A DNA stretch of 64,000 bases from Promethearchaeia archaeon (GTDB taxonomy: Archaea; Asgardarchaeota; Lokiarchaeia; Sigyniarchaeales; SOKP01), in NCBI GenBank assembly GCA_029856125.1, contig JAHQWJ010000120.1, positions 96,001-160,000 on the forward strand. Reading direction: 5' to 3'. Position 1 is the first letter of the stretch, and the number at the start of each line of letters is the position of its first letter. Shown here piece by piece: positions 1 through 41,008 of this stretch. A program made the position numbers and the translations under genes. Under the pieces are notes generated by a model. It saw only the letters and a list, made by a program, of their open reading frames with translations, was not told the DNA's origin and did no database searches.

Positions 1-606
1 TCCTTTGTGTGGTCTCACCTGATCATTGGTAATAGTATATAAGCATAAGTAATCTGCTACACTTCCATTTGTAATGAAGCATTTTTCACCATTTAAGATA
101 TAATGATCACCATCTCGGATTGCTCTCAATCTCATTCCACCAATTGCATCAGAACCACCTGTTGGCTCTGTAATAGCAATTGCACCGAGTTTTGATCCAT
201 CTCCTATACCAGATAAGTATTTTTTTTTCTGTTCAGAGGTACCAAATTCAATAACAGGTCCAGCAAAAAGGCACGATGAAGCTCCAAAAACACCCGCTAA
301 GGCATAACTAAAAGCAGTTAATTCCTCTCCTAAAATAGTGCGATAAAGTATCGCTTTACCTTGACCTCCGGCTTCTTTTGGAATGGTCATATTAAGATAT
401 GGCATTTTCCTTAAAGTCTTTATAGCTAATTCCTTATCTCTGTTTCTATCTATATGTTCTGCGACTGGAGCAACATTTATTTCACACCATTCACGAACTT
501 CCATTCTAAAATCGTTTTCTTCTTTCGAATAAAAATGCAACCTATTTGGCATACAAGAATATCCAAACTTTAATTCCAAGTCTTCAAAATGTATGTGTCC
601 CGACAT
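1..606 (-). CDS. Acyl-CoA dehydrogenase, N-terminal part (runs off window start)
   Basis: Not in ORF track; my translation from ATG at 606: MSGHIHFEDLELKFG...FGTSEQKKKYL...GAIAITEPTGGSDA...GDHYILNGEKCFITNG; TEPxxGSD and LNGxKxFITNG are ACAD motifs; frame open to base 1. Confidence 0.92.
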   Translation of the reverse strand, partial: MSGHIHFEDLELKFGYSCMPNRLHFYSKEENDFRMEVREWCEINVAPVAEHIDRNRDKELAIKTLRKMPYLNMTIPKEAGGQGKAILYRTILGEELTAFSYALAGVFGASSCLFAGPVIEFGTSEQKKKYLSGIGDGSKLGAIAITEPTGGSDAIGGMRLRAIRDGDHYILNGEKCFITNGSVADYLCLYTITNDQVRPHKG

Positions 607-665
607 AATTCAATAATTAAATATCAGTCATAACTTTTTAATTTCTTTTTTTTTGTCTATCTAAT

Positions 666-677
666 TTACTTTAGTAA
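666..677. promoter_or_regulatory. Putative operator TTAC-N4-GTAA (TTACTTTAGTAA)
   Basis: Palindromic motif repeated in 7 intergenic regions of the island; 60 nt upstream of ACAD start. Confidence 0.65.
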
Positions 678-988
678 AATTAGAATTCATCTTAAAATAG
701 GTTTTTAGGTATAGATCTCTCGCTATGCTATGATGTTATGACGAGAAGAGATACAAATTATGAATTCAAATTACGATTCAATATTATCATTTTCAAACAT
801 TGCATCTTTATTAGGTTTTGATGGATCGAATTTTTCAGTTAGGTTAACCTATGAAATTAGTAAAATTAACTTGGGTTACCATATAAGATCTTAAGATTAC
901 TTACGTAGAATATGCTTCTTCATTTAGATTATTTAAATTTAAAGTATGACTAGTATTGAAATAAATCAAAAATAAGAAAAAGGGATTA

Positions 989-2041
989 ATGATGTCTATT
1001 GTTGATTCATCAAAAATAAAACGAGTTGAAATTCTTGAAATACTTGAATCTCATCAAAATTTCCAAACTCAAGTCAATGAAGCCTTTTTTATAGCTGTAA
1101 CTTATACACTTGATGATTACATACCGATTTGGAATAAAGTAAGTGTTTTAAATCAACGATGGCTTAAAGGAGAAAATGTGAAAATTACGCTATCTATGAA
1201 AGAGAAGTTACTTTTAGCAGAACATCTTAGATTTTATATGGAATATAGTGCGGATTATTTGGAAAAGTTATCTCCAATTCCAAAAGATGCTATAAGAAAA
1301 CCAGTAAAAGCCAATAATGTGCCTTGCGAATGGTTTTTCCATAATGGAGCAAAAGAAGATCGAGTTATCTTATATTTTCATGGAGGTGGTCACATTATGG
1401 GGTCTTCTAATAGTCATAAGTTATTTACATTGAAATTAGCAAGAATAACTAATATGAAGGTTTTAAGTATAAACTATCGTCTTGCTCCAGAGGAACCTCA
1501 TCCGGCAGCCTTAGAAGATTGTGTTTCTGTTTACAAATGGCTTCTCTCCTCGGGATATCAATCTAAAAACATTATTATCGCCGGAGACTCTGCAGGAGGT
1601 TATTACACGCTATTAACTTTACTCAAACTACGGGATGATAGAATCTCGTTACCTGCAGGAGCAATATGTCTTTGTCCATCTACAGATTTGGCACTAACTG
1701 GCGAGTCTCTAACAAAAAATTGTTCCACTGACATTATTTTAGGCGATTTAGGGTATATCTGGTGGGTTGATTCTAATTTAGCAGGCAGGAATCCTTTTGA
1801 TGCCACATTTTCTCCTCTTTATGCTGATTTAAAAAGCTTACCTCCCATTTTGCTTCAAGTAAGTACAAGTGAAATGCTGTTTGATGATTCCAAAAGATTT
1901 TTTGAGCTAGCTAAGAAGGCAGGGGTTGATATTTCAATGCAAACCTGGGATAACACCATACACGTATTTCAAAATACCGATTTACCTGAAGCAGAGGAAG
2001 CAATGGAAAAAATTAAAAAATTCACAGAAAAATTCTTTTGA
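989..2041 (+). CDS. Alpha/beta hydrolase, HSL-family esterase/lipase
   Basis: HGGG oxyanion motif, YRLAPE, GDSAG nucleophile elbow, C-terminal HVF. Confidence 0.92.
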   Translation: MMSIVDSSKIKRVEILEILESHQNFQTQVNEAFFIAVTYTLDDYIPIWNKVSVLNQRWLKGENVKITLSMKEKLLLAEHLRFYMEYSADYLEKLSPIPKDAIRKPVKANNVPCEWFFHNGAKEDRVILYFHGGGHIMGSSNSHKLFTLKLARITNMKVLSINYRLAPEEPHPAALEDCVSVYKWLLSSGYQSKNIIIAGDSAGGYYTLLTLLKLRDDRISLPAGAICLCPSTDLALTGESLTKNCSTDIILGDLGYIWWVDSNLAGRNPFDATFSPLYADLKSLPPILLQVSTSEMLFDDSKRFFELAKKAGVDISMQTWDNTIHVFQNTDLPEAEEAMEKIKKFTEKFF

Positions 2042-39122: not shown

Positions 39123-39146
39123 GAGAGTTTCTTCATTTGAGTTTTG

Positions 39147-40955
39147 TTATTTTTGGTAATCTTGAATTTGATTATCCCACACATTAATTTTTTGTTTCTG
39201 TTGTTCCCATTCATTTCTCATTTCGTTTTTTAAGTATTCTGTGCTTGGCCCAACTGGTAAATTATCTTTAAAGACTATGTATCTTGGAACATGGTAAAAC
39301 GCAAGGTTATGGTATAAGAACCTACTTAATTTTTCAAGGGTTAGCGTAGAATTTTCTGCTTTAACTACATATAAGAGTAAGTCTCCTCTAGTGTGATTCT
39401 CATTAATGATTGGAATACATGTAGATAAAAAGACACTTGGATGTGAATTCGTCATTCTTTCAATTTCTTTTAGATATATTTTTTCTCCTGCTTTAGTTAT
39501 TATCTCATTTGCCTTTCCCATAAAATAAAGAAACCCCTCCTCATCGATGTATCCAAAATCCCCAGTATAAACCCAACCATCATCAACAACTCTTACATCT
39601 GTTGTTTCTGGTTGTTTATAATACTCTAGTGAGTAATTCATGTTTGATTTTACTAAAATTTCTCCAGTATTGTTCGAACCTGCTGTTAACGGGTTTCCAA
39701 ACGTATCTACGATTTTTAGTTCAACAAAATCTAAAGGTTTTCCGACAGAACCACTTTTACCTCCTTTAGATCCTATTGTATTCATCGTTATTCCTACACC
39801 CTCCATGTGGGACCAAAACTCGTATAATGTGATCCCGAATCGATTTTCAAATGATTTCCATAATTCAACACCTGCACCAAATCCATAAGCCAGATCGATA
39901 GAATGATTGCGATCGAGTTTATTTGGTGAATTATTCACAAGTGCATGTAGATACCCCCCAAAATAAGTTAAAACTTCCGGTTTGTGTATCCTAACGTCCT
40001 CCCAGAACTTTTGAACACTAAAATTTTCAGCCAATACCACCGCGGCGTCATAAAATAGAGAAGGAATTATGACATAAAATTGCGTGGCTCCATGAAATAA
40101 AGGCATTGGACAGTAAACTTTGGTTTCTTTTCTTAAACCTATTTTCTTTAACTCTAAACCAATGTTTATAGCAGAAAGAGCTAAGTTTCTGTACAAAACT
40201 CCTTTAGGATTTCCCGTAATTCCTTCTGTATAATTAATTTGAATTGCATCATCATCATAAATATTTATTTTAGGATTTTCTACATTCGAATCAAGAAGAA
40301 ATCGGAAATCGAATATTTTATCGTTAAATTCAAAGTCGCTAGGTGCGTTATAAACATAAACTCGTTTGATTTTTGGTAAAATGTCCAAGAACTTTTCAAT
40401 AGTATTAAAATAATCATAGTCTGTAATGATTATTTCAGTATCAGAATCACTTAGAATGTGAAGTAAAAACTCTTCCCTTAGACCAGTGTTAATGTTAACA
40501 GCAACACATCCCGATTTTAAAACTCCAAACCACAAAAAAAGAAATTCCGGGCTATTTTTCATAAGTAAAGAAATTTTAGGTTTCTTTAGATGCATTTCAC
40601 TTATAATATTTACTATGCCATGAGCGAACTGGTTCGCACTCGCATTTATATCGGAAAAAGAGTATTTATCTTTGTTAAAATATAAGAATGTAAGCTCCCC
40701 ATTCTCCTCTGCTTTTTTTTCTAATAATTTGGGAAGCGTTATATTATTAATTCCAAATTTTCTTAACGTTCTTGAACGTCTGTTATTTTTTGAAATTAAT
40801 ATTGAATCTTTTTGAACTTCAATTAGTATTTCTTCATCCCTTCTAAAGGGAAAAGAGGTGTCATTAGCTATTTTGCTTGGGATATAGATCCAAGTTGTCT
40901 TATACTTCCCCTTTCCAGAAGGTTTAATTACAATTTTACTTTTGCCTAATTCCAT
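39147..40955 (-). CDS. AbrB/SpoVT-like domain fused to CaiC-like acyl-CoA ligase fold with degenerate catalytic motifs (copy 2)
   Basis: N-term KYKTTWIYIPSKIANDTSFPFRRDEEILIEVQKDSILI; YTEGITGNPKG, WSHME, TGD, GKANE, LPVGPSTEYLK. Confidence 0.85.
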   Translation of the reverse strand: MELGKSKIVIKPSGKGKYKTTWIYIPSKIANDTSFPFRRDEEILIEVQKDSILISKNNRRSRTLRKFGINNITLPKLLEKKAEENGELTFLYFNKDKYSFSDINASANQFAHGIVNIISEMHLKKPKISLLMKNSPEFLFLWFGVLKSGCVAVNINTGLREEFLLHILSDSDTEIIITDYDYFNTIEKFLDILPKIKRVYVYNAPSDFEFNDKIFDFRFLLDSNVENPKINIYDDDAIQINYTEGITGNPKGVLYRNLALSAINIGLELKKIGLRKETKVYCPMPLFHGATQFYVIIPSLFYDAAVVLAENFSVQKFWEDVRIHKPEVLTYFGGYLHALVNNSPNKLDRNHSIDLAYGFGAGVELWKSFENRFGITLYEFWSHMEGVGITMNTIGSKGGKSGSVGKPLDFVELKIVDTFGNPLTAGSNNTGEILVKSNMNYSLEYYKQPETTDVRVVDDGWVYTGDFGYIDEEGFLYFMGKANEIITKAGEKIYLKEIERMTNSHPSVFLSTCIPIINENHTRGDLLLYVVKAENSTLTLEKLSRFLYHNLAFYHVPRYIVFKDNLPVGPSTEYLKNEMRNEWEQQKQKINVWDNQIQDYQK

Positions 40956-40996
40956 AATTCTTCTCTCTAGTAATTCAAGTCAAATACTTAAATAAA

Positions 40997-41008
40997 TTAC
41001 TTATGTAA
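40997..41008. promoter_or_regulatory. Putative autoregulatory operator TTACTTATGTAA
   Basis: 42 nt upstream of fusion gene copy 2 ATG, same offset as copy 1. Confidence 0.7.

Follow-up and report, generated by a model that had tools for sequence, protein, structure and literature searches.

We analyzed a window of 64,000 nucleotides (nt) from a 3.7-Mb Lokiarchaeia genome (G000; the window is G000:C126:96001-160000), placed in Promethearchaeota/Lokiarchaeia by the names of its homologs, in which two paralogous genes encode proteins that join a predicted AbrB/MazE-fold domain to a degenerate acyl-CoA ligase body, and in which the palindrome TTAC-N4-GTAA stands upstream of these genes and of the operons around them. 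The fusion proteins and the palindrome form a well-supported candidate regulator-operator pair, a putative new architecture within a known class of system. Below, G-numbers denote genomes, L-numbers loci, and P-numbers proteins or clusters in the comparison set. Positions 1-41,008 of the window hold 29 genes, 27 of which encode hydrolases, CoA enzymes, oxidoreductases, importer parts or regular companions (lengths in amino acids, aa):

1-606, minus strand: 5' part of an acyl-CoA dehydrogenase (ACAD) gene, which runs on leftward into an enoyl-CoA hydratase gene and further genes
989-2041, plus strand: HSL-family alpha/beta hydrolase
2074-5046, minus strand: Fe-containing alcohol dehydrogenase (ADH) and two-subunit CoA transferase
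5209-6744, minus strand: type-B carboxylesterase
6910-9594, plus strand: intact FATP-type long-chain acyl-CoA synthetase (above the PRK08279 cut-off) and SGNH/GDSL hydrolase
9629-17231, minus strand: importer cassette 1 (173-aa membrane protein, OppB, OppC, membrane-fused OppD and OppF), then a membrane-anchored beta-lactamase-fold hydrolase
17440-19716, plus strand: class-5 solute-binding protein 1 with a Loki-CTERM anchor
19802-21613, minus strand: putative fusion regulator 1, an AbrB/MazE-fold domain (aa 1-57) and a degenerate CaiC-like ANL ligase body, as assigned from the Pfam AMP-binding match, fold model and searches, dimer model and motif table
21786-32396, minus strand: importer cassette 2 (178-aa membrane protein, OppB, OppC, membrane-fused OppD and OppF), then an intact acyl-CoA ligase, an Rce1-like protein and a 337-aa protein
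32605-38002, plus strand: class-5 solute-binding protein 2, then two type-B carboxylesterases
38022-39122, minus strand: beta-lactamase-fold hydrolase directly downstream of fusion 2
39147-40955, minus strand: putative fusion regulator 2, paralog of fusion 1 at 61% identity

The two fusions are 603 and 602 aa long, and both carry the N-terminal domain of ~57 aa that is missing from the two intact ligases of the window. A first-pass annotation had described them as AbrB-ligase fusions with common altered residues, and this description holds: the P-loop Ser is replaced by Glu244, the A5 Gly by Ser382, the A8 Arg by Lys481, and the A10 Lys by Glu573 in both. The fusion was found in 55 of 161 Lokiarchaeia genomes, and a phylum-wide scan found only stand-alone N-terminal domains, and no fusion, outside this class. 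Records labelled as Thor-, Odin-, Hermodarchaeota or a Crenarchaeota group are nested in Lokiarchaeia clades or share the same gene order, and may be mislabelled.

Exact TTAC-N4-GTAA sites occur seven times in the window, compared to 1.56 expected, a number that none of 100 shuffles reached. All seven are intergenic and, judged by gene orientation, every transcription unit of 1-41,008 is headed by one, so that the single palindrome reported by the first-pass annotation ahead of both fusions, the ACAD, ADH/CoA-transferase and esterase/FATP genes and both importer cassettes is indeed present at each of these places:

666-677: putative operator between the ACAD and HSL-type esterase genes, with a second, one-mismatch site at 897-908; both conserved in G127, decayed in the fusion-less G121 and G132
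5148-5159: putative operator upstream of the Fe-ADH/CoA-transferase genes; conserved in G127
6799-6810: putative operator between the carboxylesterase and FATP-type ligase genes; among the FATP homolog loci examined, conserved in G127 only
17325-17336: putative operator in the divergent promoter of importer cassette 1
21654-21665: putative operator upstream of fusion 1, 41 nt from the ATG, probable autoregulation; conserved in G127 and L183
32482-32493: putative operator in the divergent promoter of importer cassette 2; conserved in G114
40997-41008: putative operator upstream of fusion 2, 42 nt from the ATG and followed directly by the TATA-like TTTATTTA; conserved in G114

There is no exact site in 41.2-64 kb, though the amount of intergenic DNA is similar (2564 vs 2935 nt). 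The cluster extends to the left of the window (L113:10843-19376, i.e., G000:C126:86843-95376), where two further exact sites, at C126:88417 and 90956, precede genes for an HpaB-family 4-hydroxybutyryl-CoA-dehydratase-like protein, an MFS transporter, two enoyl-CoA hydratases, an aldehyde dehydrogenase and a second Fe-ADH-family enzyme. In the genome as a whole, 15 sites are intergenic, and nine of these fall in one 50-kb stretch compared to 0.045 expected (Poisson P ~2e-18). The totals for the whole genome carry no signal of a regulon (78 sites with the N4 spacer vs 79-111 for spacers of 1-10); such counts are blind to it, and therefore we used promoter-by-promoter tests. Two more sites are probably due to chance, one with a single mismatch ahead of an ABC ATPase gene (59064-59075), the other exact but with a weak score, shortly past the end of the window (G000:C126:160220).

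Among distinct fusion genes, 34 of 49 have an exact site within 120 nt upstream, compared to 0.24 in shuffled sequence and to at most one for any other spacer; the baseline in G000 is 15 of 3262 genes (0.46%). A weaker second site is frequent 13 or 20 bp upstream of the first, and the AT-rich TATA-like octamer that lies between the sites of the 20-bp pairs suggests autorepression. Fusion genes whose own site has decayed are the last genes of a DUF2284-corrinoid-RACo operon, the head of which carries the site; the promoters of this operon have an exact proximal site in 27 of 30 cases. Between G000 and G127 the sites are conserved while their flanks drift.

The site also tends to be lost with the fusion, by counts that are to be read as indicative. 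ACAD promoters have it in 3 of 6 genomes with the fusion and in 1 of 24 without, and importer promoters in 12 of 20 loci where the fusion is of clade A/B, in 0 of 11 where it is of another clade and in 0 of 16 where there is none. In G132, a 70-aa C-terminal relic of the fusion gene (L279:18555-18767) accompanies a decayed operator and split 4-hydroxybutyryl-CoA-dehydratase-like and ADH genes; this cluster is a regulon in decay. In G083, with otherwise matching gene order, both the fusion gene and the site are absent. Gene order and motif are thus conserved in related genomes, and, because the site tracks the fusion across genera and disappears from orthologous promoters without it, the palindrome is the probable operator of the family.

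By predicted fold, the N-terminal domain is a member of the AbrB/MazE superfamily, with the likeness seen in models and DNA binding predicted. The AF2 model of aa 1-60 (pLDDT 90.6) has a beta-beta-alpha-beta-beta topology, with strands at 8-13, 18-23, 43-48 and 51-56 and a helix at 27-30. The 10 top of 11 VIA-align matches are AbrB/SpoVT/MazE/VapB-type or small archaeal DNA-binding chains (Z 3.0-4.8, root-mean-square deviation 1.9-3.6 Å across 44-51 residues). A homodimer is predicted with an ipSAE of 0.47, compared to 0.00 for the best control, 93% contact agreement and a pLDDT of 67; this ipSAE mark is reached by 20 of 30 true homodimers and by 1 of 23 single chains. The dimer model pairs beta2-beta2', beta4-beta4' and beta1-beta3', i.e., a swapped hairpin, which may reflect likeness to solved folds. 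Fold model, structure matches and dimer model agree in supporting the AbrB-fold assignment of the first-pass annotation. In sequence comparisons, PDB searches with profiles of the domain gave nothing significant (MazE at E 1.6), and Pfam MazE_antitoxin gave weak matches for 25 of 100 stand-alone relatives (best E 0.00013) and 3 of 42 fusion domains (best E 0.0018) and no match for the window query. Atlas searches gave no usable match (TM <=0.35), which shows neither novelty nor absence.

The domain has ~470 relatives (50%-identity clusters), mostly stand-alone proteins of 55-100 aa with the pattern Y-x-P...D..FPF. Stand-alone AbrB-like proteins of this kind (~450 clusters, P0135-P0268), poorly modelled by Pfam, occur also in other Asgard classes. 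A second AbrB-type fusion of the window is an AbrB-PhoU-like phosphate regulator gene, so judged by eye, at 47211-48209; hhalign found no significant similarity between its N-terminus and the N-terminal domain of the ligase fusions.

The ligase body is derived from CaiC-like ligases. Its model (pLDDT 87) has the full two-domain ANL fold and matches 4-coumarate:CoA ligase with a Foldseek E of 4e-39, and all fusions form a single branch of the ligase-body tree (SH-aLRT 100; quick method, midpoint root), in which P0103 is unlabelled as a fusion merely owing to its longer N-terminus. We compared the catalytic motifs of 74 fusions with those of 53 unfused relatives. The A10 basic residue falls from 99% of unfused ligases to 13% of fusions (Glu573 in both window copies), the A8 Arg from 100% to 32% (Lys481 in the window copies), the A8 Gly from 100% to 47%, and the A4 His from 100% to 32%, being lost in window fusion 1 and kept in fusion 2. 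In the GENIS-type hairpin, Asn492 and Ser494, present in 100% of unfused ligases, are found in 3% and 1% of fusions, and the P-loop Ser is lost (Glu244 in the window copies). Retained are the P-loop Lys251 (100%) and Gly245 (96%), the A5 acidic Glu385 (~99%) and the A7 Asp466 (97%). The window copies thus have the ANL fold and the A7, A5 and P-loop residues of active ligases, and lack the A10 basic residue, the A8 Arg and the GENIS-type hairpin. In 4-chlorobenzoate:CoA ligase, mutating residues that match some of the lost positions cuts activity 100-500-fold, and the A10 lysine is catalytic (PMC8388817).

The "inactivating-looking" substitutions reported by the first-pass annotation are therefore real in the window copies, which look catalytically impaired, but they do not describe the whole family. 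Decay is graded, because basal fusions retain most or all of the ligase motifs. The earliest-branching fusion, P0100, which has two exact operators upstream, resembles unfused ligases in its P-loop, His, A8 and A10 motifs, while the window copies have Glu at A10. The entire 530-aa body is retained down to 36% identity, with family-specific invariant residues Tyr331, Gly358, Trp381, Glu385, Thr390 and Asn392. In ANL structures, the stretches that contain this Tyr331-Asn392 block form the walls of the adenylate and acyl pockets; new invariant residues round the pocket suggest that a ligand is retained.

A literature search, of incomplete coverage, found no paper on an AbrB-ANL-ligase architecture. 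Several known systems share parts of it. BirA joins an adenylate-forming class II synthetase fold to a winged helix, is fully active and uses its adenylate as co-regulator; the fusion likewise joins an adenylate-forming fold to a predicted DNA-binding domain, with an adenylate as possible co-regulator, but its window copies look impaired. CaiC-like/PRK06155 ligases, unfused relatives of which occur in bacteria and Lokiarchaeia, are the nearest family of the ligase body, whereas the fusion falls far below the family cut-offs (255 vs 722 bits), has the extra N-terminal domain and has changed catalytic motifs. BzdR of Azoarcus CIB, an XRE helix-turn-helix (HTH) domain with an inactive shikimate-kinase domain that senses benzoyl-CoA (PMC3602430), offers a parallel in the apparent joining of a DNA-binding domain to a dead enzyme fold as effector domain, in acid catabolism via CoA chemistry, and in loss of activity as a part of evolution; however, both its parts are unrelated to the swapped-hairpin domain and the ANL ligase fold of the archaeal fusion.

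Sulfolobus acidocaldarius FadR has a TetR fold, shown acyl-CoA binding and few sites in a local 30-kb cluster of lipase and beta-oxidation genes (PMC6449355). The local catabolic cluster is the likeness (50 kb here); FadR has no homology to the fusion, and is reported from Sulfolobales, Thermoplasmatales and their kin, not from Asgard archaea (PMC6449355). Neither fusion has a GntR or TetR HTH Pfam match, the N-terminal domain being mostly beta, and the likeness to FadR is functional only: the sites head all clustered lipid/acid catabolic operons in G000 and G127. With SpoVT, AbrB, MazE and VapB (PDB 2w1t, 1yfb, 2mrn, 5k8j; PMC4333400) the fusion shares the N-terminal fold, dimer topology, a palindromic operator and autoregulation (MazE), as predicted from the models and promoters, and with SpoVT an added C-terminal sensor-type domain. 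In those proteins the C-terminal partner is a GAF domain or a toxin-neutralizing tail, and an ANL ligase in none of the records searched; the fusion domain, unlike theirs, belongs to the "YxP..D..FPF" subfamily without a Pfam model.

The genes behind the palindrome differ among lineages. They encode (i) in G000, esterases, ligases and two Opp cassettes; (ii) in another genus, thiolases, an FMN oxidoreductase and a molybdopterin enzyme beside an Opp cassette; (iii) in G155 and G042, a LIV-type importer with a ligase; (iv) in basal members, thiolase, hydratase and CoA-transferase; (v) in one deep member, M28 peptidases; and (vi) the operon of DUF2284, a B12-binding protein and a RACo activator (L043:6267-9868 and orthologs L186-L215). 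Of the 33 genomes with an ortholog of this DUF2284 gene, 30 have the fusion, and in two of the exceptions the contig breaks off within the operon; DUF2284 is possibly the component that gives a corrinoid methyltransfer system its substrate specificity. What the targets have in common is the uptake of carboxylic acids and their CoA-linked catabolism, rather than long-chain lipid in particular. The first-pass annotation had proposed that the fusions sense a fatty acid or acyl-CoA, which is overstated, as other lineages have the operator at the DUF2284-corrinoid-RACo operon, a LIV-type importer or peptidases. In G000, the 4-hydroxybutyryl-CoA-dehydratase-, transhydrogenase- and semialdehyde-dehydrogenase-like genes, the esterases and the two ligases point to esters of hydroxy- and fatty acids. 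The FATP-type ligase has the site in G000 and G127, which are close genomes, but other FATP homolog loci examined have no site, and FATP homologs were rejected as conserved targets outside these two.

The first-pass annotation had placed the importers amid seven ester hydrolases and two intact ligases, with no soluble peptidase recognised. The seven serine-hydrolase-fold genes, the two ligases with intact motifs and the membrane extensions are there, but two of the seven supposed ester hydrolases have a beta-lactamase fold, for which an amidase or peptidase role is possible, and a gene for an Rce1-like membrane protease (22818-23879) lies inside the gene run of cassette 2.

Both cassettes match Opp/Dpp (PepT) systems in make-up, with a class-5 binding protein (SBP_bac_5), two BPD_transp_1 permeases and two ABC_tran ATPases with oligo_HPY tails. 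They differ in the ATPases, where both OppD/OppF pairs have hydrophobic N-terminal extensions of 150-290 aa with 4-8 predicted membrane helices (by hydropathy only) of no recognised family, and in the membrane gene at their head. This protein of 170-180 aa (16710-17231 and 31860-32396 in the window) has no Pfam or NCBIfam match and heads nearly every membrane-fused Opp cassette; it is possibly an extra importer subunit. The soluble 337-aa protein (21786-22799) also has no family match, and its homologs repeatedly adjoin Opp cassettes (G000 C42, L268, L274, L275). OppD proteins of another genus are up to ~1000 aa long, their N-terminal extension far exceeding that of the window copies (L116:3654-6680, L115:1673-4876, L175:9864-12995). 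Atlas searches with the OppD extension gave no usable match (TM <=0.35), showing neither novelty nor absence, and solute-binding protein 2 has no sequence match in PDB.

Membrane-fused Opp cassettes do not define the system. Those headed by the 170-180-aa gene are widespread among Lokiarchaeia, whether or not the regulator is present, and usually lack the site, and we rejected them as a hallmark. The third cassette of G000 (C27) has no site and other neighbors, and neighbors vary among paralogous cassettes. Another membrane-fused Opp cassette and the PFL-like glycyl-radical enzyme next to it are marked by a second palindrome, AAATTTAC-N3-GTAAATTT, in genomes both with and without the fusion (L266:4983; L267:11524 and 17801; L269:10030; L270:10021; L271:4931; L272:8918 and 15142). 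This cluster contains a TetR gene (L268:4922-5656, L272:911-1654) and is probably a separate, TetR-controlled regulon. Because of the C27 cassette without a site and the TetR-linked subfamily, membrane-fused Opp cassettes appear to be a general importer type recruited into several regulons. An ester cargo for the two window importers, suggested by their neighborhood alone, is possible but somewhat doubtful.

Taken together, we consider it likely that the fusion is a self-regulating one-component transcription factor of Lokiarchaeia with a ligase-derived sensor, binding TTAC-N4-GTAA. The swapped-hairpin (AbrB/MazE) barrel formed by two interlocked N-terminal domains would bind the palindrome directly. 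At the fusion's own gene, where the site overlaps or flanks the TATA region, binding would cause autorepression, and through the sites heading nearby operons it would control genes by which carboxylic acids are taken up, hydrolyzed, activated with CoA and oxidized. The ligase body would have lost efficient turnover and kept the AMP site and a conserved polar acyl pocket. Its most likely ligand would be a metabolite of the pathway (an acyl-CoA, an acyl-adenylate, or an acid together with ATP/AMP), and DNA binding would change through the domain movement that is native to the ANL fold.

It should be noted that several observations count against this interpretation. The fold scores of the N-terminal domain are low in absolute terms (Z <5, Foldseek E >1), which is common with half-barrels of 50 residues. 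TTAC/GTAA half-sites are not exclusive to the fusion, since the N3-spacer palindrome marks the TetR-bearing cluster. Fusion-less G054, G086 and G032 retain sites, all on short contigs ending inside or beside the cluster, and the co-loss counts overstate independence because the genomes are related and incomplete. Finally, a statement that the A10 Lys was lost in every fusion relative to the ancestor had to be revised: the A10 residue of the nearest unfused ligases is Arg instead of Lys and is retained by basal fusions, and hence inactivity cannot be assumed family-wide.

The similarity of half-sites raises the alternative that a TetR- or TrmB-like regulator binds the palindrome, while the fusion is merely co-regulated and uses its N-terminal domain for dimerization; the TTAC-N3-GTAA core of the TetR-associated cluster is similar, and so is the Thermococcus TrmB operator TACT-N3-AGTA. 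However, the site accompanies the fusion gene in at least six neighborhoods that are unrelated to each other, the sites in the loci read have no other regulator gene as a recurrent neighbor, and the site vanishes or decays upon fusion loss, whereas a nearby HTH-like gene, found in 33 of 42 genomes of the genus irrespective of the fusion, persists in fusion-less genomes. Moreover, the predicted DNA-contact loop (Ser13-Gly14, Tyr18) is near-invariant among fusions and variable in stand-alone relatives, and we regard a different regulator as quite improbable. Two other alternatives leave the operator with the fusion and concern the ligase body. As a BirA-like bifunctional "trigger enzyme", it would adenylate slowly and hold acyl-AMP tightly as co-regulator, as the retained AMP/ATP-site residues (P-loop Lys, A5 Glu, A7 Asp) and the intact motifs of P0100 would allow; the A10 Glu, A8 Lys and P-loop Glu of the window copies, the poorly conserved C-domain motifs of derived clades and the intact ligases present in the same clusters make this unlikely. 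Many fusion-specific invariant residues outside the classical active-site motifs would suit a non-sensing scaffold or protein-interaction module, e.g., one docking on an active ligase or importer, but the invariant residues in the presumed pocket-lining stretches and the conservation of the complete body render this very improbable.

A bolder form of the sensor interpretation is tentative, and we think it rather unlikely to hold in full. It envisages an undescribed Asgard family in which an ANL ligase fold became an allosteric metabolite sensor on a swapped-hairpin barrel, with a readable operator, with the path from unfused ligase through intact bifunctional fusion to pseudoenzyme preserved in living genomes, and with Opp-type importers that here carry acyl esters, not peptides. 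If the sensor role is true, the ANL adenylation fold joins the enzyme folds reused as transcription-factor sensors, and the natural series from intact to degenerate bodies tests the conversion of an enzyme to a regulator, which has so far been shown by engineering for BzdR. The candidate regulator-operator pair is directly testable in Lokiarchaeia, with a 12-bp site that can be read from genomes. This site groups uncharacterised genes, such as the DUF2284-corrinoid-RACo operon and the membrane-fused Opp cassettes, into pathways, and hints at the diet of uncultured sediment archaea.

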